From Candidatus Scalinduaceae bacterium (GTDB lineage Bacteria > Planctomycetota > Brocadiia > Brocadiales > Scalinduaceae): a DNA stretch of 42,829 nt. Position numbers and translations under genes: made by a program. The notes beneath the pieces were generated by a model that worked only from the letters and a program-made list of their open reading frames with translations, searched no databases and was not told the origin of the DNA. The stretch lies in NCBI GenBank assembly GCA_046759445.1, contig JBHICG010000025.1, forward strand, positions 1 to 42,829. Direction: 5' to 3'. Positions 8,654-35,291 of this stretch are shown one piece after another; the first letter of the stretch is position 1, and each line of letters starts with the position of its first letter.

Positions 8654-9298
8654 TTACCAGAAATTGAACCTTTCTTGTTCCTCTTTCACAGTAGTAGATG
8701 AACCGTGCCCAGGATGAATGAGAGTTTCTTTATCAAGTGTAAAAACATGGTTTTTTATTGATTCTATAAGCAGGTCATAGTTACCACCTGGTAAATCGGT
8801 TCGGCCAATACCTCCTGCAAAAAGAGTATCTCCTGAAAATAATATTGGAGCTTCACCATTGCTTGTTGAATCAGTATATATCCCTATTCCTCCAGGTGTA
8901 TGACCAGGGAGGTGCAAAACACTGAAGACATACTCATCAAACATAATCTTGTCATTGTGATTTAGGATTCGGTTTGCTGGTGGAGATGTATATCTTTTCC
9001 CTCCTAGAAGAGAAAGATTCTTAAATGGATCAGTTAACATCTCGGCATCGTCAATATGAATGCAGATTTGAATGTCTGGAAACTTCCTCTTTAACTCCTT
9101 GTTACCTCCTATATGGTCGCCATGGCCATGAGTATTTATTAAAACAATTGGATTTAGATCCTTTTCGGCCAGACAGCCAATTATTCTCTCTGTGTCTCCT
9201 CCTGGGTCTATAATAATAGCATCTGAATAATTTCTTAAAGAAATTATGTAACAACAAGCTTCCAGAGGTCCAACTTTTAATAATTGAATATCTAACAT
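8654..9298 (-). CDS. MBL-fold metallo-hydrolase (glyoxalase II-like)
   Basis: THGHGDHIGG, PGHTPG, FSGDTLF and PGHG motifs. Confidence 0.92.
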   Translation of the reverse strand: MLDIQLLKVGPLEACCYIISLRNYSDAIIIDPGGDTERIIGCLAEKDLNPIVLINTHGHGDHIGGNKELKRKFPDIQICIHIDDAEMLTDPFKNLSLLGGKRYTSPPANRILNHNDKIMFDEYVFSVLHLPGHTPGGIGIYTDSTSNGEAPILFSGDTLFAGGIGRTDLPGGNYDLLIESIKNHVFTLDKETLIHPGHGSSTTVKEEQERFNFW

Positions 9299-9379
9299 AA
9301 TCTGATCACTGCAAAAGGCACGGCACTTAAAAACGTCTCGGGAGTTCTTATAAAACGAGATTAGAATACATTTGTATTT

Positions 9380-10588
9380 TTATCGTCTTCGTGAAGTGCC
9401 GCTATATTTGATATATCGATTTATTATTTGCTTAACATCACAAGTCTTTTCATCTTTATCCAAACCGATGATTTTCCTTTCCCTGGTTGCGCTTTTAGTA
9501 GAATCAGATGCGTGTACGGCATTTCTCAGTATGTCCAGTCCATAAAACCTCCTGATACTAGAATACCTTGCCTTTTTTGGATCAGTGGCGCCTAAAAGTT
9601 CTCGAATAGTCTTAATTATATTTATGCCCTGGTACAATATAGCAAGACAGATAGTATTCTTCCCATCTTCAGTTTTCTTGGTTTCAGCAAAGGCAGAAGG
9701 TGCGCGGCCTGTCATATACTGTAGTATATTGCCGAATTCACCTCTTACGGTAGGTTCCTTGAGTTGATCGGCCAATTTATTCAGGATAGCATCATTCAGC
9801 TCAAAAGGAAAATCCTGCTTGTTTAACGCTGTCTTCAACTTTTCAACCAGTTTCGGTTTAAATTTATCTTCGAAACTATCATAAAAGAAATCTTTCACAG
9901 GTGCATAAAATTCTTCTGCCTGTTTAGTGCTCATGTCAATAAGTTTTATTCCAACAATAAAGAAACCGGTCCTTGCAATCATATCTATTATGTTTCCAGG
10001 ACGCGGATCATGCTTTTCAAATGGTTTTAGGATTATGAGCGAAGTTTCCGGTTTTTTGCCTTTACCAAAGTCTATAACCTTTTCTAAGACACCACCATCA
10101 CTTAATGAATATTTTGCAAATAAATTAAGTTGCTTAATGTTAGTAGCTTTATCTGCAGAAGTAAGGACTGCAGGCTCAAAATATTCAACTTTTCCGTTAC
10201 CAGCTCTTATGCTGTCACCATATGTACCCCTAATCGTATTCCCCCTTAAAGGATCTGATGCGGATCCAATCACTTTATTATGGAGGATATTAACGGCATC
10301 CTCACCTTCAACAAGAAGAAGCATGGCACGATTAGATATTCCAAGCTTGTTATTTTTCCTAAGTTTGTCATTTACATATTCTATCATGGCTTTTTTCCAC
10401 AAAGGCTTCATTCTCCGCTTCTCAATGGTTTCACAATACTCATCTAAAAACTTATCACTCGGGGTATACATTCTTGCACCAACAAGTTCCAGGTCAGACA
10501 AAGAAAGAAGCCTGCTGATTATGCCACCCGTTCTACTCTTTAATAAGCTATACGGCGTTATTAGTGCATAAGTTAATTCTTTTGCCAT
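9380..10588 (-). CDS. ndk: Two-domain nucleoside diphosphate kinase
   Basis: Two NDK-like repeats; the C-terminal one has IILKP, LGATDP, SIR and NAVHASDS (phospho-His); the N-terminal one has TIRGTYG but PAVLTS in place of the His motif. Confidence 0.85.
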   Translation of the reverse strand: MAKELTYALITPYSLLKSRTGGIISRLLSLSDLELVGARMYTPSDKFLDEYCETIEKRRMKPLWKKAMIEYVNDKLRKNNKLGISNRAMLLLVEGEDAVNILHNKVIGSASDPLRGNTIRGTYGDSIRAGNGKVEYFEPAVLTSADKATNIKQLNLFAKYSLSDGGVLEKVIDFGKGKKPETSLIILKPFEKHDPRPGNIIDMIARTGFFIVGIKLIDMSTKQAEEFYAPVKDFFYDSFEDKFKPKLVEKLKTALNKQDFPFELNDAILNKLADQLKEPTVRGEFGNILQYMTGRAPSAFAETKKTEDGKNTICLAILYQGINIIKTIRELLGATDPKKARYSSIRRFYGLDILRNAVHASDSTKSATRERKIIGLDKDEKTCDVKQIINRYIKYSGTSRRR

Positions 10589-10772
10589 ATTTTCCTATAC
10601 CTTCCTTCATCTAATTTATATCTGGATTAAGGGAATTGGCGACAAATAACATTAACAATATTATTTTTGAAATTATGGTATCGTATAAGTCCTTTTTACA
10701 TTTTACAAATAATCGAGTTATCAAGAGCTAAAATTTTTCATGTTATTTATTGCCAATTCCTAAACATAACCT

Positions 10773-13700
10773 TCACATACTCTTTGAGACCAGACATCCT
10801 TCTCCAATAAGATTTCCTATTCCATTAAACACCTTTTCGTTTAAAGTAACAGAATACTCTTCAGATGTTTTTATCTTTACAGATTTTTCGCCAGGTATCT
10901 CGAATTCTATAAATACAGGACAATGCCCTTTATTTGTTGATAAGATTTTTTTTAAACGAGAGAGAACGTCATCATTAATTTGTGAATATTTTAGCTTTAT
11001 TATAGCATTCTTGGGTGATTTGTTCTCTATTATTTTTTCTATATCTTCCGGAGTAATTATTTCTGTAACCCTTATAGAGGGTTCAGTATCTCTAAAACCA
11101 ACTTTCCCTTTAATAAAAACCACCTCATCGGCATGAAGTAAATTATTGAGAGCGGTCAATTTCTTTTCGAATAATACGCACTTCACTATTCCTTCCATGT
11201 CTTCAATCGTAAAATATACAATTGGTTTGCCTTTTTTAGTGGTTGTATTGTTAATACTATCAATTATCCCTCCTATCAAGACTTCGGAACCTTCAGATGT
11301 TTCAGGCAGATTTCCGGCTGAAGTATCTGAATATTTTTCTATTACTTTCTTATACCTTTTTAATGGATGAGAACTAACATAGAGGCCCAATGCCTCCTTT
11401 TCTGCTTTAAGTAACTGTTTTTCAGACCATTTCTCAGTATCAGTTAATTGTTGAAAAGAACTTGAATTTACTGTGTTTTCTTGTGTGCCAAAAAGGCTCA
11501 TTTGACCCATACGCCGGTCTCTGTTTGATTGAGCTCCAATTTGCAACAATGTATCTATTCCTTCAAAGAATTGGGCCCTGTATCCTGGCAAAGCATCAAA
11601 GCAACCTGATTTGATAAGGTTTTCCATTACCTGTTTATTTACCAGACGTAAGTCTACACGTTCACAAAAGTCAAATATCGAAGAAAATTCTCCATCATTT
11701 TTTCTTGCTGTTATGATTGATTCTATTGCCTTTTCACCAACATTCTTTATTGCCCCAAGACCGAACCTTATCTTTTTATCTGATACTATTGTAAAATCAG
11801 AATAGCTCTCATTTATGCATGGTGGTAGTAATTCTATGTCCATTCGATGACATTCATGCATATAGTCTACTATCTTTACGTTATTTTGCTTTTCACACGT
11901 CATCTGTGCGGCCATATACTGAGTAGGATAGTTTGCTTTTAAATAAGCCGTCTGATAGCAAACCATGGCATAAGCAGCAGAGTGAGATTTATTAAACCCA
12001 TAGCCTGCGAAGTGTTTCATTAGCTCGAAAATTTTCTCAGCAATATTTTTTGGTATTTTATTCTGTACTGATCCATTAATAAATTGGTTTTTGAATTTTG
12101 CCATAACCTCGGGCTTCTTCTTTCCCATTGCCTTTCTCAAACTGTCGGCTTCATTCAGGGTAAAGCCTCCCAGTCTGTTTGCGATGCGCATTACCTGCTC
12201 CTGATATACAATCAAGCCGTATGTTTCCTTGAGTAACGGCTCGAGCTTCTCATGAAAATATGAAACGGATTCTCTACCATGTCTGCAATTTATGAATGTA
12301 TCTACCATTCCACTCTGTAATGGTCCAGGTCTGTATAAGGCAACTAGAGGTAATATATCTTCAAATTTATCAGGTTTGAGCTTTATTAATAAGTCCCTAA
12401 AACCTCTACTTGTCTCCACCTGAAAGACACCCTTAACATCCCCTCGAGACAGCAATTCGTATGTATTTTTATCATCCAATGGAATTTTACTGACATCAAT
12501 GTCCTTACCGATTGTTGCCCTTATCAGTTTAGTTGCCTTGTCAATAACAGTGAACTTCCGTACTCCAAGGAAATCTGCCTTTAATAGACCTATCTTATCC
12601 ACAAGGGTTTCACCATCGAATTGTGTTATTACAACATCCTTATTTTTTGCCAAAGGAACGTAATTAGTTAATGGTTCATCGGAAATAACCACACCTGCCG
12701 CATGTGTAGAAGCATGCCTGCGTAATCCTTCAAGCTTTGAAGAAATATTGAATAGTTCCTGAATTTGCTTCTCATTTTTATGCATGGATTTTAGTTCCGG
12801 TTCTTGCTCAAGAGCTTCCTGCAATGTAATACCTAGAGTGGGTGGGATTAATTTCGCCACTTTATTAACAACAGGTAATGGTATATCCATTACTCTGCCA
12901 ACATCTCTAACGACTGCTTTGGCCTTCATTGTGCCAAAGGTGATAATCTGAGCGACATTGTTGTCACCTCCATATCTATTTCGTACATATTGTATTATCT
13001 TATCTCTGCCCTCAGCACAGAAATCAATATCCAGATCAGGCATAGAAAGCCTTTCAGAATTGAGGAATCTTTCAAACAGTAAATCATATTTTATAGGATC
13101 TATATTAGTAATTCCCAGTACATAGGCAACTAAACTACCTGCACCTGAACCACGTGCAATCGCTGGTATATGGTTTTTTCTTGCAAAATCAATGAAATCC
13201 CAGACTATTAGAAAATAATCAACAAAATTAGTCTCCTCTATTACGTTGAGTTCATGTTCTAATCTTTCATTTATTACGCTATCAAGCTTTTTGTATATTT
13301 CTAATGCACCGTGTTTGCAGAGTTCTCTAAGGAGATGTTTATTTGTCATACCGGGTTTGTAACAAATAGAATCTTCCTGTGGGTGAAACCTGGGCAGGCG
13401 CATTTCGTTTAAATTTAATTCAATGCAGCATCTATCTGAGATTTTTGATGTATTCATTAACGCTTCGGGTATATCTTTAAAAATTTCTTCCATCTGTTTC
13501 TGAGACTTAAAGTAAAATTCATTGGTGCTTAAACGCATTCTTTTGGTGTCTTGCAAGAGCTTTCCTGTGTTTATACACAAGAGTGCGTCATGTGCAAAAT
13601 AATCATCAGGGTTCATATAGTGTACGTCATTTGTGGCAACTGTTTTCAATCCCAAATCCTGACTAATTCTTTTTGCCATATTTACTAACTCATCTTGTCT

Positions 13701-17861: not shown

Positions 17862-18086
17862 AGCCTAAGAAATATGCGTCAATTTAGAAAATATTTGAAA
17901 AGTTTTTATTAAAATGTTTCACAGGTTATTGTGCTTCCGATACGTTGATTTAATAGTTGGATGGATTCTGAAAAAACAAATCAAGTGAAAATGTTTTATG
18001 CATTATGAAATAAAATTTATATTATTATTAACCAAATTATCTGTCAATAAAAAAAGGCATTCAGCTATATAAAATAATAAATCAAG

Positions 18087-18164
18087 GTGTTAAGATACCT
18101 TGAAAACGATAATGAAATACATTCAGCACAGGATTCAGGATGACAATTATAGTGTTCCCGCAAC
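18087..18164. repeat. Partial second copy of the 2790-2845 repeat element
   Basis: gtgttaagataccttgaaaacga...ttcaggatgacaattatagtgttcccgcaac aligns with gtgttaagagatcctgaaagcgagttcagggtgacaatatagtgtttccgcaat, with an internal insertion. Confidence 0.65.
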
Positions 18165-18170
18165 ATACTA

Positions 18171-19193
18171 CTAAAGATATAGATAATCATTTACTTTACA
18201 AGTATGGCAAATTGTTTCTGTTTTGTTTTTACGACCCAGAACTTCCTTACGTGCTGAAATGTATTTTTCATTATTCCATATTTCCTTAAATGAATTCTCC
18301 TTAATATTACCAAAAGAGTGAGCTTCGCTATATACAGAACAACATGGCAAAATAGAGCCATCCCAATTTATAACTGTCTCAGTCCATAATTGATTACAAT
18401 TAAATTTATTTTTTGGTTTCTTTTCAGTCATGTTAAATATGTTATACTCTGGAATAAGAGGTAACCATTTATAATCACGTTCAATTGATTTTTCAGCAGT
18501 TTCAAAAATTTCTTTGCCCATATCGGTACGCATCTTGTTTATGACTAACTTTATGCCTATTTCCTTTGCCAAGGCTCTAGCCTTTTCAATCTCATGTTCA
18601 TTATGTCTGAAGACATGAAACAACCATATTATCTCAGTATAACGATTTTTTAACTTTTTCTTTTTTTCAATTAAAAGTTTCATATTTGATATAACTCTAT
18701 TAAAGTCTCCATCAATATGATAAGTTGAATAAGTTGAATTACTGGCGCCATCGCAAGAAATATATATTTTTTGTAAATTAGCTATAATTAAGGCTTCAGC
18801 TAGAGAATCCTCAATGGGTAAACTCAGATTTGTGCTTATTTTTACGGCTATTTTTTTTTCGTTAGCATACTCTACCATTTTTATAATTTCTTTGTTTATA
18901 AGAGGTTCTCCCCAATTATACAACCTTACCAAGATTAGATTTTTACCTATTTCGTCAATAAATTGTTTAAAATCAGAAAAGGATAGGAATCCTTTTCTGG
19001 CAGAATCATCTCTTTGCCCTGTAGGACAAAGTGGACAACGAAGGTTACATATATTACCTGAATCTATAGTAATCTTGGCAGGATAGTAATAAAGGCGCAC
19101 GGAACCTATTGCATACTGAATTCTACTCATCAAAAGATTATATAATTTTCTTATACTAAAAACGCTTATGCGCCTCCACAACTTATGAGACAT
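18171..19193 (-). CDS. Radical SAM protein with SPASM/twitch domain
   Basis: CNLRCPLC motif, YNWGEPL, and C-terminal C..GSILPCC..CHTC. Confidence 0.9.
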   Translation of the reverse strand: MSHKLWRRISVFSIRKLYNLLMSRIQYAIGSVRLYYYPAKITIDSGNICNLRCPLCPTGQRDDSARKGFLSFSDFKQFIDEIGKNLILVRLYNWGEPLINKEIIKMVEYANEKKIAVKISTNLSLPIEDSLAEALIIANLQKIYISCDGASNSTYSTYHIDGDFNRVISNMKLLIEKKKKLKNRYTEIIWLFHVFRHNEHEIEKARALAKEIGIKLVINKMRTDMGKEIFETAEKSIERDYKWLPLIPEYNIFNMTEKKPKNKFNCNQLWTETVINWDGSILPCCSVYSEAHSFGNIKENSFKEIWNNEKYISARKEVLGRKNKTETICHTCKVNDYLYL

Positions 19194-19244
19194 CTTTTAA
19201 TAAGGAAATGTAAAACATCACAAATAAAAAGGATAATTTAAGAA

Positions 19245-19437
19245 AGCCATGAAGTTTTTTTGACTAATATCAAACGCGGAAAATAAACTATGTAATCCTC
19301 CTGAAAATACTTGCCTGACGGCAGACAGGGAGGAAAAACACACCTTATCTTGCGGGGAACCAGTTTTTATACAATTTTAATAATTCGTGGTGACCCGAGA
19401 GGTATGAATGTTACACAAAAAAGTGCTTTCATGGCCT
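19245..19437 (-). ncRNA. Candidate structured ncRNA (6S-like long hairpin) or structured leader
   Basis: Ends pair (GGCCATGAA..TTTTTTG with CAAAAAA..TTCATGGCT); inner stem CGCAAGATAAG..TCCTCC / GGAGGA..TTTATTTTCCGCG; begins 7 nt after a TTGACT-N17-TATCGT promoter; no ORF. Confidence 0.45.
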
Positions 19438-19443
19438 ATAGGA

Positions 19444-19472
19444 ACGATATCAAAAAGCATATTCCAAGTCAA
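19444..19472 (-). promoter_or_regulatory. Sigma70-type promoter for the candidate ncRNA / radical SAM gene
   Basis: -35 TTGACT (19472-19467), 17-nt spacer, -10 TATCGT (19449-19444). Confidence 0.6.
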
Positions 19473-19507
19473 CTCGATTAATCTCAAAAATTGACATAAG
19501 ATTGTTA

Positions 19508-19536
19508 TTGACATCTCTTTGTAAGTTTGTTAAGTT
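19508..19536 (+). promoter_or_regulatory. Sigma70-type promoter upstream of the lipid cluster
   Basis: TTGACA (19508-19513), 17-nt spacer ending TGt, TAAGTT (19531-19536); a second TTGACA at 19491. Confidence 0.55.
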
Positions 19537-19718
19537 CCCGCATCCATCTTTTTTCTGAAATGTGTAGCATATTTAATTCACTTAATTACACAAACATATC
19601 TTAATATATAATAGTGGTTTAAAACCCGAACTAAGTCAAAATAAAGTAAATTATTTGATTTCACTAAAAAGTTTGTTGTCTTAAACTTTTGTAGGTTTGT
19701 TTTTTGGGAGGTATTATA

Positions 19719-19970
19719 TTGGATATATCAAAAGAAGTCACTTCAATTGTTGCTGAAGTTACTGAGTTAGACGAAAAAGAAATATGGGAAAAAAGAGACG
19801 CCGATTTTTTTAAGGAATTAGAAATAGATTCTTTGTTGGCATTAGAAATACTGGCGCTCATTGAAAAAAAATTCAAAATCCAAATACCAGAAGAAAAACT
19901 AGTCGACATTACCTCATTAAATGCAACAATTGAAATGACAAAATCAACGTTGGAAGAAAATGCAAAATAG
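19719..19970 (+). CDS. Anammox-type acyl carrier protein (amxACP-like)
   Basis: DSL phosphopantetheine site in DFFKELEIDSLLALEI; GGAGG at 19707-19711 supports a TTG start at 19719. Confidence 0.9.
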   Translation: MDISKEVTSIVAEVTELDEKEIWEKRDADFFKELEIDSLLALEILALIEKKFKIQIPEEKLVDITSLNATIEMTKSTLEENAK

Positions 19971-20054
19971 CCATATATACTTTTTGCCTCCGCACCTCTT
20001 TCATGAATTTTAAAACAGTCCGTTTATGACCTTAAACAAGAAAGGTTTTTATAA

Positions 20055-20504
20055 ATGTCGAGTTTTGAGGAAATAAAGAAACTGATTCCTCAAAAAAATC
20101 CATTCTTATTTATTGATAAAGTTATTGATTTCCAAAAAGAAAGGAAGATTGTTTGTCTAAAAAATGTCTCTGGTAATGAACCATTCTTCGTTGGGCACTT
20201 TCCAGATTTTGCCATAATGCCAGGAGTCCTAATCTTAGAAGCCCTGGCACAAGCCTCAATCTTACTCTTCAAAAAAAGTTTTAATACCGACAAGGATAAA
20301 GATAAGGTCTTTTTATTAGGCTCTGCTGACATCCGTTTTACAAAACCTGTTTTTCCAGGCGACCAACTTATTTTAGAAATAGAGGCTGAAAAAATAATCT
20401 CTAGAGCCGCAATAATAAAGGGTATAGCCAGAGTAGGAGAAAAGGTAGTTTCAAAAGCTACATTAAGTTTTGGTATTGCAGAAAAAGAATCTCTAAATGA
20501 TTAA
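20055..20504 (+). CDS. fabZ: 3-hydroxyacyl-ACP dehydratase
   Basis: GHFPDFAIMPGVLILEALAQ catalytic His/Glu; PFLFID; RFTKPVFPGD. Confidence 0.93.
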   Translation: MSSFEEIKKLIPQKNPFLFIDKVIDFQKERKIVCLKNVSGNEPFFVGHFPDFAIMPGVLILEALAQASILLFKKSFNTDKDKDKVFLLGSADIRFTKPVFPGDQLILEIEAEKIISRAAIIKGIARVGEKVVSKATLSFGIAEKESLND

Positions 20505-20522
20505 TTCAGCTTAATAGCCAAT

Positions 20523-21755
20523 ATGCAAGAAAATCTGAATAAAAGAATCGTAATCACTGGTCTGGGAGTAATATCCCCTATTGGTTGTCAAAAGGACACT
20601 TTCTGGAATGCTTTAATCAAGGGCGCATCCGGAGTATCAGAAGTCAAGGCGTTTGACACAACTGAATTTAAGGTACATAGAGGTTGTGAAGTTAAGGACT
20701 TCAAATATGAAGACTATGCAAGTAATGGTTCAAATCGAAAAATTGGCAAGGGATCACAGTTTGCTATTGCTGCAACCAAACTTGCACTGGAGGATTCTAA
20801 GATAGACATAGTTAATGTAGATCCGGAAACAGTAGGAGTTTCAATTGGAACTACTGCAGGTGAGATTCAAATCCTAGAAAAAGTAAATCATTTAAGATGC
20901 GAAAACGGAGATGATCATGTAGACTCTGACCTATTCCTTAAGCATCCATGCAACAATATCCCTTCTAACATATCTATTGAATTTGGCTTTAAGGGCCCAA
21001 GCACGATAATTCCTACTGCATGTGCTGCGGGAAACTATGCTATTGGTTATGCATGCGACCTAATAAAATTGGGAAGAGCAGATGTAATGTTGGCCGGTGG
21101 TACCGATCCATTTTCCAAAGTAGCTTATGTTGGTTTTGGTAGACTCAATGCTATAGCACCGGAAATTTGTCAGCCTTTTGACAAAAACAGAAAAGGTATG
21201 TTAATCGGTGAAGGTGCTGGAATGCTGGTATTAGAATCTTTGGAAGATGCATTGGCCAGGAATGCAAATATCTATGCAGAAATCCTAGGCTATGGCCTAA
21301 GCTGTGATGGATATCATATCACAATTCCACAACCAGAGGGAAATGGTGTCGTATCAGCGATGAGAAAGGCATTAAAAGATGCCAAAATCAAGCCTGAGGA
21401 CGTTCAACATATAAGCGCACATGGCACTGGAACTGTCGCTAATGACAAGGCCGAAACAATATCTATTAAGAAAGTCTTTGGTGAACATTCAAAGCGTCTG
21501 GCTGTAATTTCTATAAAATCAATGATAGGGCATACTATGGGAGCTGCAAGTGCTATAGAAGCCATTGCATGTGCATTAGCTATTAAAGAAGATCTAGTGC
21601 CTCCCACGATAAACTATGAAACTGAAGACCCGGAGTGTGATTTAGATTTTGTTCCCAATGTAAAACGGGAAATGCGAGTCGATATAGCCTTAAACAATGC
21701 TTATGCCTTTGGTGGCAACAACAGCTGTCTTGTATTAAAGAAGTATACCGGTTAA
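20523..21755 (+). CDS. fabF: Beta-ketoacyl-ACP synthase II
   Basis: Intact Cys-His-His triad: [27 protein letters not shown]. Confidence 0.93.
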
Positions 21756-21784
21756 GAGAGTATAATATAATTATCTTAATTAAT

Positions 21785-21822
21785 GTTAATGGTATCTTAA
21801 AATATATGCCATTAACTTTTTT
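21785..21822 (+). terminator. Terminator-like hairpin between the two fabF homologues
   Basis: 11-bp stem GTTAATGGTAT / ATGCCATTAAC (one G-U), 10-nt loop, followed by TTTTTT. Confidence 0.45.
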
Positions 21823-21859
21823 ATTTCTAGGGAAATAATTTTGTAAGAAATAAACAACA

Positions 21860-23095
21860 ATGAATAATCGTTTGGTTATAACGGGAATTAGCATTTTATC
21901 TCCAATTGGTCTAAATAAAGATGAATTTTGGAACAATTTGATAAACGGTGTCTCTGGGATAAAGGATATTACATTATTTGATGTCTCCAAATACAGAAGC
22001 AAGAAGGCGGGTGAAATATCAGATTTTAATGCCAAGACATTTTTGGGTAAGAAAGGTATCCGCCATATAGACAGGACTTCGCTATTAGTTTCCTCAGCCG
22101 CAAAACTCGTAATGGAAGATGCAAATATTACTCACGAATCCTATACTGAGGATGACTTAGGAATTGTAATAGGTTCTACATACGGCAGTATAGATAGCAT
22201 TAGTTCGTTTGACCTGGAAGCTTTAAAAGAAGGACCGAATTACGTTAATCCAATGGACTTCCCAAATACGGTTCTAAATGCTCCCGCAAGCAGAGCCTCT
22301 ATTTTTTGTAAAGCCACTGGCCTCAACTCTACAATTTCGACAGGTGTTACCAGTGGACTTGACGCCATTATTTATGCTTCTGATTTCCTAAAGTTAGGCA
22401 GGGTAAAGGCCGTTTTAACTGGAGGTGTTCACGGTTTGACTCATGACATTTTTTGGGGTGCATATAGGTCAGGAGTATTATCAGGCAGCAAAGATAACAC
22501 GGTCGAGATTTCTGCACCATTTGACAAAAGGCGTAATGGACTTGTAATTGGTGAAGCTGCTGCATTGCTTATGATAGAAAGACTTGAAGATGCATTAAAA
22601 AGAAATGCAAAAATTTACGCTGAAATCAAAGGTTATGGAAGCGTCTTTAACCCAAAAAAGATTCATCATGACAGTTTCGATACTGAAGAAGGTGTAAGAT
22701 GCATTTCTCTGGCAATGAAAGATGCAGAACTTAATATTGACGATATTTCTTGTATATCAGCTTGTGCAAATTCCAGCAGAACTGGTGATATAATGGAAAC
22801 AAAAGTTATTAAAGATTACTTTGGCAATTATGCCGATAAAGTTCCTATAAGTGCAATTAAATCTATGACAGGAGAATGCCTTGATGCATCAGGAGCAGTA
22901 CAGTGCGTTGCAAGTATAATGGCAATCAACAACGGCGTCGTTCCCCCGACAACAAATTACCAGGAAAAAGACGATGAATGCAATTTAGATTATGTATCTA
23001 ATAAAAACAGAGAATTAGATGTAAAAAACGTCCTCGTGAACGCTTTTTCTGACACAGGTAACATCTCATCCATAATCATCTCAAGATATTCATAA
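21860..23095 (+). CDS. FabF-like ketosynthase homologue lacking the catalytic triad (chain-length-factor-like)
   Basis: Full-length KAS fold, but TAC is TGV, AHG is ACA and GH is GE relative to the adjacent FabF. Confidence 0.88.
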   Translation: MNNRLVITGISILSPIGLNKDEFWNNLINGVSGIKDITLFDVSKYRSKKAGEISDFNAKTFLGKKGIRHIDRTSLLVSSAAKLVMEDANITHESYTEDDLGIVIGSTYGSIDSISSFDLEALKEGPNYVNPMDFPNTVLNAPASRASIFCKATGLNSTISTGVTSGLDAIIYASDFLKLGRVKAVLTGGVHGLTHDIFWGAYRSGVLSGSKDNTVEISAPFDKRRNGLVIGEAAALLMIERLEDALKRNAKIYAEIKGYGSVFNPKKIHHDSFDTEEGVRCISLAMKDAELNIDDISCISACANSSRTGDIMETKVIKDYFGNYADKVPISAIKSMTGECLDASGAVQCVASIMAINNGVVPPTTNYQEKDDECNLDYVSNKNRELDVKNVLVNAFSDTGNISSIIISRYS

Positions 23096-23101
23096 CCTAC
23101 A

Positions 23102-24556
23102 ATGGCTATCTCCTTAAATGATTTCCCCTCAAACAAATCCCAAATAAAATCGAAATACGACGTAATCATATTAGGTGCTGGTATTGGCGGATTAATCTGC
23201 GGAGCTTTCTTAGCAAAAAGTGAAAAAAAAGTGCTCATTATCGAACAACACAGTATACCCGGAGGTTATTGCACTTCTTTCAAAAGAAAGGGTTTTATTT
23301 TTGATGCAGCAGTCCATCACATCGGTGGATGCGGAAAATGGAGTATAGTTGGTAGAAGTCTTAAGGAATTGGATATAAACATTAATTTTTTAAGACTTGA
23401 CCCTATGGACAGTATAAATTTTCCTTCTTTTTCTATAGATATTCCTGCCGAACTTGACGATTACATAAATTTGCTAAAACAAAATTTCCCATCCGAAAGT
23501 GAAAATTTGTCATCCTTTTTTAAAGAATTTGTCGGGCTTTATAGATCTACAGTTAGAATTGAAGGAAGCAAATTGCTAACTAAATACAAAGACACCACTT
23601 ACAAAGAAATGTTAGATAAGTTTTTTGCTGACGAGAAACTCAAAATGACCCTATCTGCACAGTGGGGTTACATAGGCTCAAAACCTCATGAGGTATCGGC
23701 TATTGGAATGTGCCAAATGCTGGTGAATTACTTAAAAGATGGAGCTTTCTACCCTATGGGAAGTACTCAAAAATTCGCAGACGCAATAGCTCAAAAATTT
23801 ATTGACTATGGTGGTCAAATTATGTTATCCTCTTTGGTAAACAAGATATACACAAAAGATGCACTTGCAAAAGGAGTTATAACAGATAAAGGGAAAGAGT
23901 TTTTTACTGATATTCTTGTCTCTAATATCGACCCAAAACAAACATTTTTCAAATTAATAGAAGAAAAGGAAGTTAATAATTCCTATCTTCACAAGATCCA
24001 GTCAATGAAAGAAAGTATTTCATTTTTTTTATTATATCTGGGTCTTGATGGAGACATTGACTTAAAATCACTAAAAAGAGGTTTCTACCATACATCTGAT
24101 GATATAAATTTTTCCAATGGATGGTTTTATATATCCATTCCTACAGAAATTGATCCAAATCTTGCCCCTGACAAAAAACAAATAATTACTATCGTTGCAT
24201 CATTAAAAAGCAAATATGATGATATAAAAGATTGGGCTGCCTTTAAAGAGAAAATGAAGAAACATACAATAAATTATTTAGAAAATTTTATTCCTAATAT
24301 CCAAAACCATATTGAGGTAATCGAAACCGCAACACCAAAGACGCTTAATCGTTACACACTTAACTCAAAAGGCGCAGCTTATGGTTGGGCTGTTACCGTT
24401 GACCAAACATGGTCTAAAAGGCTCCAGCACACAACACCCCTCAAGAATATTTTTCTGGCAGGGCATTGGACAAACCCAGGACCAGGGATATGTGCGGTTG
24501 TATCTTCCGGTTGGAAGGTTGCTAATCTGATTTTAAGTAGGAGGATAAAAAAATGA
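23102..24556 (+). CDS. Phytoene-desaturase-like FAD-dependent oxidoreductase
   Basis: GAGIGG Rossmann motif, PGGYC, FDAAVH, ATPKT..RYT, GAAYG and LAGHWTNPGPG. Confidence 0.88.
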   Translation: MAISLNDFPSNKSQIKSKYDVIILGAGIGGLICGAFLAKSEKKVLIIEQHSIPGGYCTSFKRKGFIFDAAVHHIGGCGKWSIVGRSLKELDININFLRLDPMDSINFPSFSIDIPAELDDYINLLKQNFPSESENLSSFFKEFVGLYRSTVRIEGSKLLTKYKDTTYKEMLDKFFADEKLKMTLSAQWGYIGSKPHEVSAIGMCQMLVNYLKDGAFYPMGSTQKFADAIAQKFIDYGGQIMLSSLVNKIYTKDALAKGVITDKGKEFFTDILVSNIDPKQTFFKLIEEKEVNNSYLHKIQSMKESISFFLLYLGLDGDIDLKSLKRGFYHTSDDINFSNGWFYISIPTEIDPNLAPDKKQIITIVASLKSKYDDIKDWAAFKEKMKKHTINYLENFIPNIQNHIEVIETATPKTLNRYTLNSKGAAYGWAVTVDQTWSKRLQHTTPLKNIFLAGHWTNPGPGICAVVSSGWKVANLILSRRIKK

Positions 24557-26019
24557 GGAAAATGATGCTCATAAATCCACACCCCCCAGGACGACATGGT
24601 GAGGAAAGTATAACCGTCATTGTACAAATGCCACTTAATCTGGCTTATATTGCTGCCCTTACGCCGGGAGATTGGGAGTTTGACGTAATCGATGAGAATA
24701 TAGAAAATGCTATTGATGAAAATGGTGAAATAACCTTTGAACCTGTTGATTTGGTATGTATTACTTCCGTTACCTATCAAGTAGCAAGCGCCTATAAGAT
24801 AGCTGAAGCATGTAGAAGAAAAGGTATGACCGTAATCCTTGGTGGAATACATGCCTCCGTAATGCCTGATGAAGCATCTAAATATGTTGATGCCGTGTTT
24901 ACGGGAGAAGCAGAAGCACTCTGGCCACAGGTAATAAAAGACTTTGAAAATGGTCAACTCAAAAAGGTTTATAATGGCGGTCTGCCAGCCTTGTCAGAAA
25001 TGAAGCATGTTTTTCCCAACAGAGAACTCATGAAAAAGAAATATAACTATAAGTTTTCCTCTATCGTTACAACAAAGGGTTGTCCAAATTACTGTGATTT
25101 TTGCAGTGTACCAACCTTCCAGGGAAAAAAATTCAGGGAAAGGCCGTATGAAGATGTTCTCGATGAGATGGAGGCAACTGATTACAAGGGATTAATGTTT
25201 GCTGAAGATAATTTCTACGGCCATAGTAAAAACTCCGCTAATAGAGCAAAGGCACTCTGGCGCGGAATGATTGAAAGAGGTATCGAAAAAGACTGGCTTG
25301 GATTTACGGCACTAAATATATCACAGGATTCAGAGGCACTAGACCTTATGGCCAAGAGTGGAAATTTTGGATTTCTCTGCGGAATAGAATCAACAAATGA
25401 GGTTGTCTTAAAGAAGATGAATAAAAGGGTAAATCTAAGGCTTGGCACAGATAGTTATTTTGACTGCATTCAAAAGATTCACGATCACGGTCTTATCGTC
25501 TGGGGATCTATAGTCTTAGGAGCAGATGGAGACGATAAGGATTCTTTTAAAAGGATGACAGAATTTGTATTGGAAAACAACATTGACGTTCTTACTTTTG
25601 GTATCAATTGTCCATTTCCACAAACTGAACTTTATCATAGATTAGATTCAGAAAAGAGGCTTTTCCGTAAGAATTATCCTGAAGACTGGAAATATTACGA
25701 TACCGCACATGTAGTTCACAGATTTGTTGACATGACGTTAGAAAATTTTATTGATGGTATGCAATATATGTATGACCATCTTTATGCCGGTGACAACCTG
25801 AGAAAACGCTTTAGAAAATCAGCTAAAACAATTGGTAGTACAAGACATGGCAAACGCAATGCTATGTTTGCCTTCCGTGTCGGCTCTGACTGGCAACAGG
25901 TCTTTGAACAGGTACTGGAAAATCTACATAAACTATACGATTCTGGAGACTATTATCAAGACTGGTATAAAAGCAGCACAGTATCAACTCATGTAGAAAA
26001 TGGTGTTACCGTAAGTTAA
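24553..26019 (+). CDS. Cobalamin-binding radical SAM protein
   Basis: N-terminal B12-binding-like region (LGGIHAS, GEAE), KGCPNYCDFC, GIES; ATGA overlap with the upstream gene. Confidence 0.9.
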   Translation: MRKMMLINPHPPGRHGEESITVIVQMPLNLAYIAALTPGDWEFDVIDENIENAIDENGEITFEPVDLVCITSVTYQVASAYKIAEACRRKGMTVILGGIHASVMPDEASKYVDAVFTGEAEALWPQVIKDFENGQLKKVYNGGLPALSEMKHVFPNRELMKKKYNYKFSSIVTTKGCPNYCDFCSVPTFQGKKFRERPYEDVLDEMEATDYKGLMFAEDNFYGHSKNSANRAKALWRGMIERGIEKDWLGFTALNISQDSEALDLMAKSGNFGFLCGIESTNEVVLKKMNKRVNLRLGTDSYFDCIQKIHDHGLIVWGSIVLGADGDDKDSFKRMTEFVLENNIDVLTFGINCPFPQTELYHRLDSEKRLFRKNYPEDWKYYDTAHVVHRFVDMTLENFIDGMQYMYDHLYAGDNLRKRFRKSAKTIGSTRHGKRNAMFAFRVGSDWQQVFEQVLENLHKLYDSGDYYQDWYKSSTVSTHVENGVTVS

Positions 26020-26380
26020 ACACTCTTATACCTTCATTAGAATAAAAATGATGCTATATTTGGTCATTCGTCAATAAATACTTTTTATTTTAGTCAAACC
26101 AATCTCTCCTAAATCCTCAAACAAAAACCATATAGACAGAAAGCACATAATACTAACCGTAAAATAATTGTGTTTTTGTTTTCATCTTGCAATCACGTAT
26201 ATGTATACTACATACCTTTTGTTAAGCGGTAGTTTAATGGCTTGATATTATATTTTCTCTTGCTTTGGTGATTGCATCTTTGTTAGATTAATAACTTTAT
26301 GGAAACGCTTATTAAAACCATAACTAATTGTATATTAAATGAAACTTATTATATAACCTTAAACAAATTTAGGAGGAAAA

Positions 26381-26914
26381 ATGGACAGTCTTAAAAATCG
26401 TATTATTAGGGCGGCAAAGCTGGATGCTCACCTTTATGAAGAAGTAGAGGCAGACAAGAGTGCAATGAGTCAAGCCATGTTGGTTGTTGTTCTATCAGGT
26501 GTTGCAGCAGGTCTGGGAACTCTAGTAAAAGGGGGATTTTTAGGGATTTTACTTGGAACAATAACGGCCCTTGTTGGATGGTACATATGGGCGCTTCTTA
26601 CCTTCTTGATTGGTACGAAGCTCTTGCCAGAACCTCAAACTAAGTCTGACATTGGTGAGTTGTTGAGAACTATTGGTTTCTCAAGCGCACCGGGATTGAT
26701 TAGGGTATTTGGTGTTATTCCAGGAATAGAAGAGCTAGTCTTTTTTGTTGCTGCAATTTGGATGCTGGCAGCAATGGTAGTCGCAGTAAGGCAAGCCCTC
26801 GATTACACATCAACATTACGCGCTGTAGGCGTATGTGTGATTGGCTGGATTATTCAAATTTTAATTTTCATTTCATTATTTTATATTCTGGGCGGGTCAC
26901 CAGGAACAACTTAA
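26381..26914 (+). CDS. Yip1-family membrane protein
   Basis: About five hydrophobic helices, YEEVEAD, LLRTIGFSSAPG, AVRQALD; AGGAGG RBS. Confidence 0.75.
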   Translation: MDSLKNRIIRAAKLDAHLYEEVEADKSAMSQAMLVVVLSGVAAGLGTLVKGGFLGILLGTITALVGWYIWALLTFLIGTKLLPEPQTKSDIGELLRTIGFSSAPGLIRVFGVIPGIEELVFFVAAIWMLAAMVVAVRQALDYTSTLRAVGVCVIGWIIQILIFISLFYILGGSPGTT

Positions 26915-27019
26915 TGCCACTTTTCCTAAAAATATTTAATGAGTCAACTATAGCAAATGTGTTGTTATTGTAAAAACATTTGCATGGGCGACAATGCCCG
27001 CAAACCTACCACCTTAAAA

Positions 27020-27793
27020 ATGGCATATAACAATTTAAAAGCAGTAGCTATCATACCTGCAAGATATGCATCAACCAGGCTACCCGGTAAGCTTATTAAA
27101 TACGAAGCCAAAAAATACACGGGAAAATTTCTCATAGAGCATGTGTATGAAAAGGTAAGAGAGGCAAAAAACATTCAGGAAGTCATTATTGCAACAGATG
27201 ATAAACGTATTTCCGAGGCAGTATACCAATTTGGTGGACATGTTAAAATGACGTCTGTTAATCATAAATCAGGTACTGATAGAATCGCTGAGGTAGCATC
27301 TAATTTAGATGCAGACTTTATAGTAAACATTCAGGGAGATGAGCCAGACGTTAGAGGAGACATGATAGATGCACTGATTAGGGCAATGTACGCTGAAAAA
27401 GAAGCAACCGTTTGCACACTGGCAAACGAAATAAGGTCTAAAGATGAACTCATCGATCCAAACATCGTAAAAGTTGTTCTAGACAAAGATGGTTATGCTA
27501 TGTATTTTTCCAGAGCCTCTATACCGTATATCAGGGATGGAAACAACAGCCCTAAATTTTCATCATTCCACTTCTTGAGGCACCTCGGTATATATATATA
27601 CCGTAAAGATTTCTTGCTAGGGTTCTCAAACCTTCCTGTACCAGCGATAGAAGAGGCAGAAAAATTGGAACAACTCAGGGTTCTTTCAAATGGATACAAA
27701 ATCAAGGTTGTTATCACACCTTACACATGTGAAGGCGTAGATACACCTGATGATTTTGAGAAATTCTTGGACAAATATCGGATTAAAACTTAG
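27020..27793 (+). CDS. kdsB: 3-deoxy-manno-octulosonate cytidylyltransferase
   Basis: IPARYASTRLPGK, SGTDR, NIQGDEP, EKLEQLR, VDTPDD; start placed at ATG 27020 (longest ORF starts 26957). Confidence 0.93.
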   Translation: MAYNNLKAVAIIPARYASTRLPGKLIKYEAKKYTGKFLIEHVYEKVREAKNIQEVIIATDDKRISEAVYQFGGHVKMTSVNHKSGTDRIAEVASNLDADFIVNIQGDEPDVRGDMIDALIRAMYAEKEATVCTLANEIRSKDELIDPNIVKVVLDKDGYAMYFSRASIPYIRDGNNSPKFSSFHFLRHLGIYIYRKDFLLGFSNLPVPAIEEAEKLEQLRVLSNGYKIKVVITPYTCEGVDTPDDFEKFLDKYRIKT

Positions 27794-27991
27794 ATTTTTT
27801 ACTTTCAATCTACTTACTATAAATATAAGCAAAAAAACTATAATGGGTTATATAAATTTCTTATTATTCGTTATTCGAGCTACGCAGCCGAATAACATCT
27901 GACGTTTTTAAATACAATAGCAGAATCAGGTATTGAATGTATAATTTAAGATATTCTTTGATGAAAATTTATAGAATTTCCAAGAATTAGT

Positions 27992-29593
27992 ATGACAAAA
28001 CACATATTTGTTACAGGTGGTGTTGTTTCTTCCCTCGGAAAGGGTCTTAATGCGGCATCAATCGGCATGCTTCTGGAAAGCCACGGCCTCAGCATAAGTT
28101 TACAGAAGTTTGATCCTTATGTTAACGTTGACCCAGGCACAATGAGCCCATTTGAACATGGCGAGATCTATGTTACTGACGATGGCGCTGAGACAGATCT
28201 TGATTTGGGTCATTACGAAAGGTTTACAAATGCAGTTACGAATAAGAATTGCAATTTTACTACAGGCTCAATCTATTATTCAGTAATAACAAAGGAACGT
28301 CAGGGAAAATACCTGGGTAAGACGATACAAGTAATCCCTCATATAACAAATGAGATTAAAGACTGTATAGGGAAGTTGGCAGGTCCAGGTACAGATGTGG
28401 TAATTTCTGAGATAGGAGGAATAGTAGGAGATATTGAAAGTCAGCCGTTTCTGGAAGCCATTAGACAATTTGGGCAAGAAGTAGGCAGAGAAAACGTCCT
28501 ATATATACATTTAACACTTGTACCTTATCTCCGGGCTGCAGATGAGATAAAAACAAAACCTACACAACACAGTGTTGGCATGTTACGCCAGGCGGGCATA
28601 GAACCTGACATTTTAATATGCAGAACGGAGAAACCGCTTGCCAGCGACATAAAAGAAAAACTATCCCTCTTCTGTAATGTAGACAAAGAATCAATTATAG
28701 AAGAAATGGACGTGAAACCTTACCTATATGAGATTCCTTTGCTGCTTGTCGAACAAGGACTTGACAAAATAATCTTAAGAAAACTTCAACTAAACACAAA
28801 TGGAAATACCCTTACCAAATGGACCAAGATGTTGGACACACTAAAGAATCCTCAAAATGTCACCGAAATTGCCATCGTTGGGAAATATATTGGACTCCAA
28901 TCTGCATACGAATCGATTTACGAGGCATTAATACACGGAGGCATTAGTGGTTCCGCAAGGGTAATAGAAAGGAGAATAGAATCAGAAGATATAGAGAAGG
29001 ATGGCGCAGAAAAACATCTTCAAGGATGCAAGGGAATCTTAATACCAGGTGGATTCGGGGAAAGAGGTATTGAAGGAAAGATAGAAGCGGTAAGATACGC
29101 AAGGGAGAATAAAATACCATACCTGGGATTGTGTCTGGGAATGCACTGTGCAACTATAGAATTTGCGAGAAATGTATGTAATCTGAAAGATGCAAACACT
29201 ACTGAGTTAGACATTAATACACCACACCCGGTTATATGTTTATTAGAGGAACAGAAGAATATTGTGAGTAAGGGCGCTACTATGAGGTTGGGTGCACAAC
29301 AATGCAAGTTAGAGACAAATACAATTGCTTATAAAAGTTACGGTCAGGAGTTAATTTCCGAACGACACAGGCACAGATATGAGTTTAATAACAAATACAA
29401 GGATATGTTTGCATCTGAGGGGTTTATTTTCAGCGGGTTCACGCTGGATGATGAATTAGTAGAAATAATCGAGCTGAAAGACCATCCGTGGTTTGTGGCA
29501 GTACAATTTCACCCTGAGTTTAAGTCCAAACCAACTAATCCACATCCGCTTTTCAAAGAATTTATTAAAGCTTCATTGGAAATCAATAAATGA
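27992..29593 (+). CDS. pyrG: CTP synthase
   Basis: [39 protein letters not shown]. Confidence 0.98.
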
Positions 29594-34560: not shown

Positions 34561-34890
34561 ATGAAACTTTCTATAAAAGAAAGAGCGATAGTTGAAGAAT
34601 TCAGACAAATAATAAACGACAAATTCCCTGATGAAATTATAGATGTATTGGTATTTGGCTCTAAAGCAAGGGGAGACGCAACGAAAGAATCAGATATTGA
34701 TGTTTTAGTAATTACGTCATCAAATAATTGGAAAAAAGGTGATGAAATTAGAGAGATCGGTTATGGACTAGACGATGAAATAGATTATAAATTATCAATT
34801 CAAGTTATTTCAAAATCACACCTTGATTATCTAAGGCAAAATAATTTTCAGTTTGTTGCAAATATAGAAAATGAAGGTATTATTGTATGA
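34561..34890 (+). CDS. Minimal nucleotidyltransferase (MNT) antitoxin-like protein
   Basis: FGSKARGD..ESDIDVLV (GS..DxD motif). Confidence 0.9.
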   Translation: MKLSIKERAIVEEFRQIINDKFPDEIIDVLVFGSKARGDATKESDIDVLVITSSNNWKKGDEIREIGYGLDDEIDYKLSIQVISKSHLDYLRQNNFQFVANIENEGIIV

Positions 34891-35291
34891 AACATATCTA
34901 TGAGGAAGAGATAAGACTAGAGATAGAGAGAAGTAAAAAAGCATTGGATGCCGCTAAAAAGCTTTTTGAAGAAGAACTGTTTGAAGACGCAATTTCTCGT
35001 TCTTATTATGCGGTTTTACATGCAGCAAAGGCGGCTTTGCTTGGAGATCACATAATAGTTGATTCACATGAAGCAGTGAAAAGGCTCTTTGGTATGCATT
35101 TGGTCAAGACAGGAAAAGTTGATGCTAAATTCTCTAAGATTCTTCGAGAAGAGCAAGATGAACGTTTTTTGGCTGATTATGATGTATCATTTTCACCTGA
35201 AAAAGAACGCGTAGAAAAGAGAATTAAAGACGCAGTGTGTTTTTTTGATGCAATGAGTTCATACCTTAAACAAAAGGATATTGATTTTTAA
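34887..35291 (+). CDS. HEPN domain protein
   Basis: AISRSYYAVLHAAKA, SHEAV and ERFLADY; ATGA overlap with the MNT gene. Confidence 0.88.
   Translation: MKHIYEEEIRLEIERSKKALDAAKKLFEEELFEDAISRSYYAVLHAAKAALLGDHIIVDSHEAVKRLFGMHLVKTGKVDAKFSKILREEQDERFLADYDVSFSPEKERVEKRIKDAVCFFDAMSSYLKQKDIDF

Follow-up and report, generated by a model that had tools for sequence, protein, structure and literature searches.

The contig JBHICG010000025.1 of Candidatus Scalinduaceae bacterium (assembly GCA_046759445.1) was analysed as one window of 42,829 nucleotides with a GC content of about 0.37. Six genes on the plus strand follow one another between positions 19719 and 26019. The first gene (19719-19970) encodes an acyl carrier protein (ACP) of the amxACP type, with 83 amino acids, a TTG start, and a Pfam PP-binding domain. 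It is followed by a 3-hydroxyacyl-ACP dehydratase of the amxFabZ type (20055-20504; 149 amino acids; Pfam FabA-like). The next two genes both encode proteins with the N- and C-terminal ketoacyl-synt domains of Pfam. One is FabF2 (amxFabF2; 20523-21755; 410 amino acids), the active ketosynthase (KS) subunit, and the other is FabFmut (21860-23095; 411 amino acids), a triad-less subunit that resembles a chain-length factor (CLF). The fifth gene (23102-24556) encodes an FAD flavoprotein of 484 amino acids similar to phytoene desaturase (PDH-like), with the Pfam domains NAD_binding_8 and Amino_oxidase over residues 28-478. The sixth (24553-26019) encodes a B12-binding radical S-adenosylmethionine (SAM) enzyme of 488 amino acids, with Pfam B12-binding and Radical_SAM domains and a DUF4070 tail. 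An initial annotation of this DNA had listed six co-oriented genes with these domains over the same interval, and the open reading frames (ORFs), a Pfam match on every domain, and the conserved gene order bear it out.

The intergenic distances are 84, 18, 104, and 6 nt in block order, and the stop of the PDH-like gene overlaps the start of the radical SAM gene by 4 nt. A Shine-Dalgarno sequence, GGGAGG, is located at 19706-19711. Since it sits seven bases ahead of the TTG at 19719, this codon is the most likely start of the ACP, as the initial annotation had it; the ORF listing runs the frame further out, to a TTG at 19704. The AT-rich intergenic stretch upstream of the ACP gene (19194-19718, 525 nt, no strand) presumably serves as the promoter region, and the GC content of 18001-20000 is 0.306. 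A promoter-like site matching 10 of 12 positions lies at 19585-19612, upstream of the ACP gene. Such sites are not enriched in the window (36 in the scan vs 38.2 expected from shuffles), and the terminator scan gave eight sites vs 5.5 in shuffles, which was judged no excess. ARAGORN returned nothing in the window. Rfam gave no match there at the gathering threshold, and therefore no riboswitch was detected ahead of the operon.

The surroundings of the block were compared across related genomes by scanning a radical SAM alignment against one genome per species, and 77 loci were taken from the best 80 of 546 confirmed relatives. The radical SAM protein is at least 70% identical to that of the window in 46 of the 77 loci, and 38 of these 46 have at least 5.3 kb of upstream sequence and are testable for gene order. 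The order ACP-FabZ-FabF2-FabFmut-PDH-radical SAM on one strand is found in 37 of the 38 testable Brocadiales loci. The eight loci with shorter upstream sequence show as much of this order as their length permits. The exception is Candidatus Anammoxibacter (L055), where the radical SAM gene (10001-11419, 72% identical) is present and the other five genes are absent within 10 kb on either side. Its neighbours there are genes for signalling proteins (a SpoIIE-type response regulator and a GAF protein) and SCO1.

When the window was aligned with these loci by blastn, similarity was confined to 19698-26020, with none outside 19600-26100. The order in 37 of the 38 loci and this confinement place the arrangement far beyond chance. 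Homologues of the flanking genes of the window (a SPASM radical SAM gene, a 177-aa membrane ORF, KdsB, CTP synthase, and DnaE) were found in none of the 77 loci. Because the flanks are unshared and similarity stops at the block edges, the six genes, as read from their sequences, are the conserved unit, with sharp edges at the coordinates first annotated.

Candidates for additional members were considered and rejected. The divergent SPASM radical SAM gene on the minus strand (18171-19193), 525 nt upstream of the ACP gene, has no homologue near the cluster in the 77 loci; the sequence upstream of the ACP gene reaches 1.6 kb or more in 36 of them. Among NCBIfam models, the product of this SPASM gene best fits a tungsten-cofactor oxidoreductase maturase, at 114 bits vs a cut-off of 380. 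None of the other loci has the downstream genes for the 177-aa membrane protein, KdsB, and CTP synthase. The first of these, a hydrophobic ORF directly downstream of the block (26381-26914, plus strand), has no Pfam or NCBIfam match. Other lipid or envelope genes in the window encode phosphatidylserine decarboxylase, KdsB, and CTP synthase (38762-39430 and 26957-29593, plus strand), and their linkage to the block is not conserved elsewhere.

The relatives of the block proteins point to a host among the anammox bacteria. Identity among the 120 best listed FabFmut relatives runs from 89% (Candidatus Scalindua rubra) down to 66-68% (Brocadia, Jettenia, and other Brocadiaceae), and the organism names among these matches are only Scalindua, Brocadia, Jettenia, Wujingus, and Brocadiales or Planctomycetota bins. 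FabFmut and the radical SAM enzyme have their best matches in Candidatus Scalindua, at 89-92% identity. In trees, the radical SAM enzyme, FabF2, and FabFmut of the window fall inside Scalindua clades, and the nearest row, in identity as well as path length, is each time L001, Candidatus Scalindua rubra. The block thus appears to sit in the genome of a Scalindua, a marine anammox bacterium. No hydrazine-synthase genes were found among the scanned ORFs of the 42.8-kb window.

Kuenenia stuttgartiensis is known to have these six genes with order and orientation unchanged, and orthologues occur in Scalindua brodae and Brocadia fulgida. The Kuenenia genes kuste3603-3608 are listed as ACP, FabZ, FabF, non-canonical FabF, phytoene desaturase, and SAM radical enzyme in Table 2 of PMC4790861, and the name Cluster I is used for them in preprint 10.64898/2026.05.19.726425. 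Proteins of the window are 71-93% identical to those of other Scalindua loci and 57-85% to those of other Brocadiales, share the FabZ marker residues and the loss of the triad, and match the solved anammox structures 7qv0, 8ayi, and 9s5h. Because gene content, gene order, best matches, and family-specific residues all agree, it is nearly certain, at the level of sequence comparison, that the six genes are the Scalindua orthologue of Cluster I. The initial annotation had proposed this match to the candidate ladderane cluster, and it had named aryl-polyene or other type II polyketide synthase (PKS) relatives and a non-anammox host as results that would speak against it. The best matches and synteny instead lead to Scalindua and then to Brocadia, Jettenia, and Kuenenia, with no aryl-polyene or type II PKS clusters as best matches and no sign of a non-anammox host. 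The window differs from known Cluster I copies at the species level only, in a Val at the FabFmut Cys position and in flanks unlike those of every other locus examined. The block is a complete, intact further copy of a cluster that is already known. Published descriptions of the cluster go back to 2009 and structural studies to 2023, and one more intact Scalindua copy leaves the question of how cyclobutane ladders are made unchanged.

The ACP of the window matches Pfam PP-binding at 9e-14 and keeps the Ser of the DSL motif. Its best match in the Protein Data Bank (PDB) is the anammox chain 7qv0_D (4e-39), with 69 of 77 aligned residues identical when counted from the alignment. It also aligns with the anammox structures 7auf_A and 9s5i_E, and the best other ACPs reach only about 1e-6 (3e-6). 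An unusual long 3-10 helix is a feature of amxACP. FabZ matches Pfam FabA at 4e-25. It aligns with the amxFabZ structures 8ayi, 7qv0_A, 8ayb, and 8ayc at 1e-70 to 1e-73, and the anammox chain set against the best canonical FabZ gives 9e-73 vs 5e-33. Dietl et al. (PMC10139942, section 4) give as hallmarks of amxFabZ the catalytic His48 and Glu62, Ile69 replacing Gly, Ser or Thr at 96, and Val or Ile at 115. All of these markers are kept in the alignment, as H48, E62, I69, T96, and I115, and I69 is present in 38 of 38 Brocadiales in-cluster FabZ rows. A distant second FabZ-like gene (31-37% identical) is found on the minus strand about 2.5-8 kb downstream of the radical SAM gene in many Brocadiaceae loci (L015, L017-L022, L024, L025, L028, L031, L036, L038, and L057). 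It has Arg at both 96 and 115, as in canonical FabZ.

Alignments show that FabF2 keeps Cys167, His265, His300, and Lys332, and the C-H-H-K set is present in 50 of 50 KS-type rows of the loci. At the same columns, FabFmut has Val163 for Cys, Lys and Cys for the two His, and then Lys. The second FabF had been called triad-less from the start, and the alignment agrees: the first FabF keeps Cys-His-His, and the second has none of the three. A pairwise BLAST hint that FabFmut retains the first His was rejected; a twelve-sequence alignment puts Lys there. Other Scalindua sequences do not conserve the His-His pair that FabFmut has two to three residues downstream from the first His column. L001-L004 of the Scalindua group share the Val at the Cys position, and Thr is found in seven other Scalindua-clade loci, as is reported for S. 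brodae (preprint 10.64898/2026.05.19.726425).

The best PDB match of FabF2 is 9s5h_B (4e-208), vs 7e-110 for the best canonical chain, and that of FabFmut is 9s5h_C (1.5e-183), vs 8e-81. FabFmut is 36% identical to the adjoining FabF2 and 89% identical to the Candidatus Scalindua rubra protein. Its stretch MDFPNTVLNAPASR is identical to the sequence of 9s5h_C, and this region is described as lining the substrate tunnel (preprint 10.64898/2026.05.19.726425). FabF2 scores 464.8 against TIGR03150, below the cut-off of 493.75, and 450 against the subfamily model NF005589, above the cut-off of 387. FabFmut is under both cut-offs, at 345.1 and 334.6, respectively. An active KS gene beside an inactive paralogue is also the pattern of type II PKS pairs, such as ActA/ActB of actinorhodin and Iga11/Iga12 of ishigamide. 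FabF2 matches the ishigamide ketosynthase 6kxd at 4e-98 and 1tqy at 7e-78, and the window proteins are nearer to FabF than to PKS subunits. CLFs of aromatic PKSs carry Gln at the active-site Cys position; the inactive subunit of the window has Val. Furthermore, the window has no cyclases or aromatases, and the partners of the pair are FabZ, a CrtI-like flavoprotein, and a B12 radical SAM enzyme.

With the NCBIfam family crtI_fam (TIGR02734), the flavoprotein reaches 166, under the cut-off of 238.1, and its best PDB match, CrtI 4dgk at 1e-25, is not a close solved relative. It is 72-77% identical to Scalindua orthologues, with 77% to the S. rubra locus, and 57-62% to those of other Brocadiales. 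The radical SAM enzyme is 92% identical to that of the Candidatus Scalindua rubra locus L001, and its Cys motif, C177-x3-C181-x2-C184, is invariant in the alignment of relatives. Its best PDB match, 9ccb_A at 3e-14, is likewise not a close structure. The top NCBIfam model is the ladderane-named TIGR04072 (rSAM_ladder_B12). Since the score of 88.6 bits is far under the cut-off of 360, the enzyme belongs to a different family. A B12-binding radical SAM gene beside fatty-acid genes is common to the window and to the TIGR04072 and other lipid clusters of Kuenenia and Desulfotalea described by Rattray et al. in 2009. The B12-binding and radical SAM architecture is also that of BchE, whose model the enzyme matches at 74.5 bits, far under the family cut-off; it is similarly far under the cut-off for the radical SAM cyclopropanase Jaw5. 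BchE and Jaw5 are mechanistic analogues in that they form C-C bonds or rings on a tetrapyrrole or lipid side chain, and their substrates differ. No activity is reported for the anammox enzyme (PMC13459092). A further radical SAM protein, P0122, is 45% identical to the window enzyme.

The most useful new point of the comparison is a lead outside the Brocadiales. Four loci, L041, L042, L049, and L050, known here from locus stretches alone, are classed as non-Brocadiales by their record titles: "uncultured delta proteobacterium" for L041 and L042 (contigs of 381 kb and 1.8 Mb), "Spirochaetales" for L049, and "Thermodesulfobacteriota" for L050. Their GC content is 0.68-0.69, vs 0.37-0.55 in 11 sampled Brocadiales loci. 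ACP, FabZ, KS, CLF, PDH, and radical SAM genes are found in the identical order in L041, L042, and L049, and the proteins are 38-61% identical to those of the window. In that gene order, identity is 48, 51, 56, 48, 45, and 60% in L041, 48, 51, 56, 47, 47, and 59% in L042, and 61, 47, 53, 38, 44, and 57% in L049. The high-GC FabZ has Leu or Ile at position 69, and the high-GC CLFs are without the triad. About 28 metagenome proteins are related to the CLF of L042 at 67-87%, followed by the FabFmut proteins of anammox bacteria at 46-54%. As a lead only, a feature search in the Atlas placed this CLF nearest to a cluster whose known members are mostly Myxococcota.

In these loci the block is part of an extended cluster, which spans 5302-19578 in L041, 5312-20139 in L042, 1427-15783 in L049, and 268-8392 in L050. 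L050 begins inside the array, and its downstream part alone is visible. Upstream of the block in L042 are genes for a CLF-like protein, a 3-hydroxyacyl-CoA dehydrogenase, an enoyl-CoA hydratase, a KS, and a TetR regulator. The downstream side has two paralogues of the radical SAM enzyme, with 52% and 45% identity to that of the window, another KS/CLF pair, and an enoyl-CoA hydratase, followed by FabG (TIGR01830, 312.2 bits vs an equivalog cut-off of 297.75) and a fourth radical SAM enzyme, of the B12/DUF4070 kind. The gene set of L049 is comparable, with a short-chain dehydrogenase/reductase or ketoreductase (SDR/KR) gene and one further related radical SAM paralogue, vs two in the other high-GC clusters. 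The high-GC clusters also contain one or two radical SAM genes of the B12/DUF4070 kind that are more distantly related. The radical SAM genes at 12857-14485 in L042 and 9973-11319 in L049 are tblastn calls only. No recognisable enoyl-ACP reductase was found in L042 or L049.

The relationships among these genes were followed in trees from a quick IQ-TREE search (LG+G4, SH-aLRT support only), in which the high-GC rows carry warnings on long branches and composition. The radical SAM enzymes form a 61-row clade with 100% support and three subfamilies. Subfamily A is made up of the anammox in-cluster enzyme (43 rows including that of the window, 100% SH-aLRT) and also takes in the first radical SAM enzyme of L041 and L042 and two L049 copies, which join at 82%. 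Subfamily B (97%) unites the second radical SAM enzyme of L041, L042, and L050 with stand-alone Brocadiales paralogues (L040, L043-L047, and L052). These paralogues are 52-58% identical to the enzyme of the cluster, lie at about 10001-11400 in full-length loci, and have no fatty acid synthase (FAS) genes nearby. Five of the seven stand-alone loci come from bins that also carry an in-cluster copy (70-75%). The neighbours of the stand-alone gene in L040 and L047 are a menaquinone-pathway (MqnC-like) gene, APS kinase, and unrelated genes. Subfamily C (100%) contains the third radical SAM enzyme of L041, L042, and L050 and a second radical SAM enzyme of the Planctomycetota bin L035. The latter belongs to a second module (7311-11222, minus strand; radical SAM 47%, KS 45%, CLF 36%) about 4.6 kb downstream of Cluster I on the opposite strand, which may correspond to kuste2803-2805.

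The KS/CLF tree was built from 54 of 100 rows, with the anammox rows thinned by hand. The high-GC in-cluster KS and CLF branch next to the anammox FabF2 and FabFmut clades (85-94%), and the additional KS/CLF pair of L035 groups with the pair that lies downstream in the high-GC loci (100%). KS, CLF, and radical SAM enzyme of L041, L042, and L049, with L050 contributing in part, thus each branch next to the anammox clades. Reading a direction of transfer from these trees requires a root and whole genomes.

The structural papers describe Cluster I as exclusive to ladderane producers (PMC10139942; preprint 10.64898/2026.05.19.726425), and the initial annotation had likewise called the arrangement anammox-specific. 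In Brocadiales, the block is present in 37 of the 38 testable loci. The claim of exclusivity is too strong given syntenic homologues in bins of about 69% GC that are not labelled Brocadiia, and on sequence grounds the three loci with the same six-gene block weaken the premise. The block is rather likely one form of a modular gene family that reaches beyond anammox bacteria, of which the high-GC bins carry extended versions and Brocadiales bins carry dispersed pieces. Such pieces are seen in at least some, mostly deep-branching Brocadiales bins, with one radical SAM subfamily on its own and another with a second KS/CLF pair. If the wider family is real, either ladderane-related strained-ring lipids are made outside anammox or Cluster I makes something other than the ladder. 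Occurrence in ladderane producers only is one of two standing arguments for the role of the cluster, and at the gene-cluster level it appears not to hold.

In either case, reconstitution would be better modelled on the fuller, self-contained high-GC cluster than on the anammox genes by themselves. The non-anammox versions list helpers that the anammox cluster is missing, namely FabG, further radical SAM enzymes, and extra KS/CLF pairs. Reconstitution, or expression in a high-GC host that is tractable, could draw on this gene set as a concrete list of parts, and both structural papers single out such work as the step yet to be taken. Full-text searches of the literature turned up no description of a gene-for-gene Cluster I homologue outside anammox, and supplementary files may bear on this. 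Surveys based on antiSMASH list "ladderane" clusters in Desulfobacterota, Myxococcota, and other phyla, presented without gene-level detail (PMC9902471, PMC11968836). Rattray et al. reported Kuenenia lipid clusters as syntenic with Desulfotalea, Geobacter, and Pelobacter (PMC2649909); no Desulfotalea loci are among the best 80 of the 546 confirmed radical SAM relatives.

As to function, the reading we favour, and consider reasonably probable as a whole, is that the Cluster I orthologue is an ACP-dedicated short-chain line that feeds ladderane synthesis. The cluster would encode a type II FAS/PKS-like line dedicated to its own carrier protein and parallel to housekeeping fatty-acid synthesis. 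FabF2 and FabFmut would form a KS/CLF heterodimer that decarboxylates malonyl-amxACP, primes, and extends short chains. The 3-keto group would be reduced by a FabG encoded elsewhere, and amxFabZ would dehydrate 3-hydroxyacyl-amxACP, not acyl groups on ordinary ACP, in a line without an enoyl reductase of its own. The flavoprotein and the radical SAM enzyme would then act on a short acyl or enoyl intermediate (up to about C8) bound to amxACP, and the radical SAM enzyme may make or join the C-C bonds of the cyclobutane part. Inferred elements of this scheme are the recruitment of FabG, the link to ladderanes, and the reactions assigned to the flavoprotein and radical SAM enzyme. The remaining elements were shown in vitro by others for orthologues, and by analogy they would hold for the window proteins: the ACP and FabZ structures, the chain preference and amxACP specificity of FabZ, the heterodimer, and decarboxylation. 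The FabF pair of Kuenenia and Brocadia is reported to form a KS/CLF-like heterodimer that decarboxylates malonyl-amxACP, forms acetoacetyl-ACP, and favours C6/C8 probes (preprint 10.64898/2026.05.19.726425). According to Dietl et al. (PMC10139942), amxFabZ prefers C6-C8 and acts solely on amxACP-bound substrate.

This short-chain line is supported because four of the six proteins fit anammox-specific structures far better than canonical ones. The initial annotation had stated that no ketoreductase or enoyl reductase is in the cluster, and the absence extends to the window: SDR/ketoreductase and enoyl-reductase families have no match among the 35 ORFs scanned over 42.8 kb. Because the L042 and L049 clusters encode FabG or SDR/KR and no recognisable enoyl-ACP reductase, both the borrowed FabG and a line without an enoyl reductase gain indirect support. 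Several points weigh against the favoured reading. The same block is present in three bins of about 0.69 GC not labelled anammox, and the radical SAM enzyme does not reach the ladderane-named family TIGR04072. The heterodimer is reported to have failed to elongate hexanoyl-ACP in vitro (preprint 10.64898/2026.05.19.726425). Javidpour et al. expressed kuste3603-3608 in E. coli and, in their account, detected all six proteins but neither ladderanes nor new fatty acids; kuste3607 lacked CrtI activity and did not replace CrtI in a lycopene pathway (PMC4790861). Isotope labelling of the ladderane part is stated by Dietl et al. to fit none of the detailed schemes (PMC10139942), and both structural papers, like Javidpour et al., state that no experiment ties the cluster or any of its proteins to ladderanes (PMC10139942; preprint 10.64898/2026.05.19.726425; PMC4790861).

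Taken by itself, participation of the cluster in ladderane synthesis is probable. Within such a role, a split synthesis, in which a short linear part is made on its own, is a tentative choice, and routes other than the split, ring-by-ring, and polyene routes take the likelihood left over from these three. We regard it as unlikely that the cluster makes no ladderanes at all and yields another specialised short or modified acyl product or a shared precursor, the association with ladderanes being correlative. This would agree with the syntenic homologues in the three high-GC loci labelled deltaproteobacterium or Spirochaetales, with the roughly 28 further metagenome proteins close to the high-GC CLF, with the reported lack of ladderanes on heterologous expression (PMC4790861), and with Candidatus Anammoxibacter, whose radical SAM gene stands apart from the other five. 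It agrees less well with the conservation of the block across the testable Brocadiales loci, with the high expression reported for Cluster I (PMC4790861; PMC10139942), and with a dedicated ACP that is not shared with the housekeeping system. Moreover, the high-GC carriers may themselves make related strained lipids.

A ring-by-ring route has also been proposed, in which each cycle of KS, KR, and dehydratase (DH) leaves a 2-enoyl-amxACP that the radical SAM enzyme closes to a cyclobutane ahead of the following extension, with the straight tail added last (PMC10139942; PMC13459092). The gene content is exactly what such cycles would use, namely KS/CLF, DH, and radical SAM, without an enoyl reductase; KR would be provided in trans, and L042 and L049 encode it in cis. 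The high-GC relatives also pair several radical SAM subfamilies with separate KS/CLF pairs, as stage-specific enzymes would. Labelling of the ladder part, however, would not fit this route according to Dietl et al., and its late cycles need bulkier substrates than those accepted by amxFabZ in a test that covered substrates without cyclobutanes (PMC10139942). Ring closure by the radical SAM enzyme is itself a presumed activity. We therefore hold the ring-by-ring route to be rather unlikely.

The initial annotation took the missing reductases as consistent with a polyene-type intermediate made with a borrowed FabG. The absence holds, and it fits the ring-by-ring proposal equally well. In the polyene route, the KS/CLF pair, a borrowed FabG, amxFabZ, and perhaps the desaturase would build a long polyunsaturated acyl-ACP, which the radical SAM enzyme would fold into the ladder in a cascade. 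An enoyl reductase is absent from the window and from the fuller, FabG-bearing non-anammox clusters, a CrtI-family flavoprotein is present, and polyene-forming type II systems typically contain KS/CLF pairs, in line with the ishigamide match of FabF2. The published data nevertheless make this reading weak. AmxFabZ is reported to barely convert C10-C12, and the heterodimer favours C6/C8 (PMC10139942; preprint 10.64898/2026.05.19.726425). Polyunsaturated acids are described as undetected in anammox bacteria and in E. coli expressing the cluster (PMC10139942; PMC4790861), the labelling pattern is a mismatch according to Dietl et al. (PMC10139942), and a 2026 review in Nat Prod Rep calls the route unsupported by data (PMC13459092). 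It is one of three published proposals, currently the least favoured, and we consider it improbable. A KS with a triad-less partner is the hallmark of aryl-polyene and aromatic type II PKS systems, and this pair and the feature-level placement by the Atlas of a related CLF near actinomycete chain-length factors might point to an ordinary cluster of that kind in a non-anammox host. This reading has a negligible chance of being correct and is refuted by the all-anammox-type named organisms (Scalindua, Brocadia, Jettenia, and Planctomycetota/Brocadiales-type) among the 120 best listed FabFmut matches, the anammox proteins as best PDB matches, and the synteny with Brocadiales, with Val163 at the Cys position of the CLF-like subunit and no cyclase, aromatase, or aryl-starter genes among the scanned ORFs of the window also against it.

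Two further features of the window lie apart from the block. Genes for a nucleotidyltransferase-domain protein (109 amino acids) and a HEPN-domain protein (134 amino acids) overlap by 4 nt at 34561-35291 on the plus strand, in an arrangement like that of toxin-antitoxin pairs. On the minus strand, 9380-10588 encodes a protein of 402 amino acids with two stretches that match the nucleoside diphosphate kinase domain, and it is much longer than an ordinary nucleoside diphosphate kinase.

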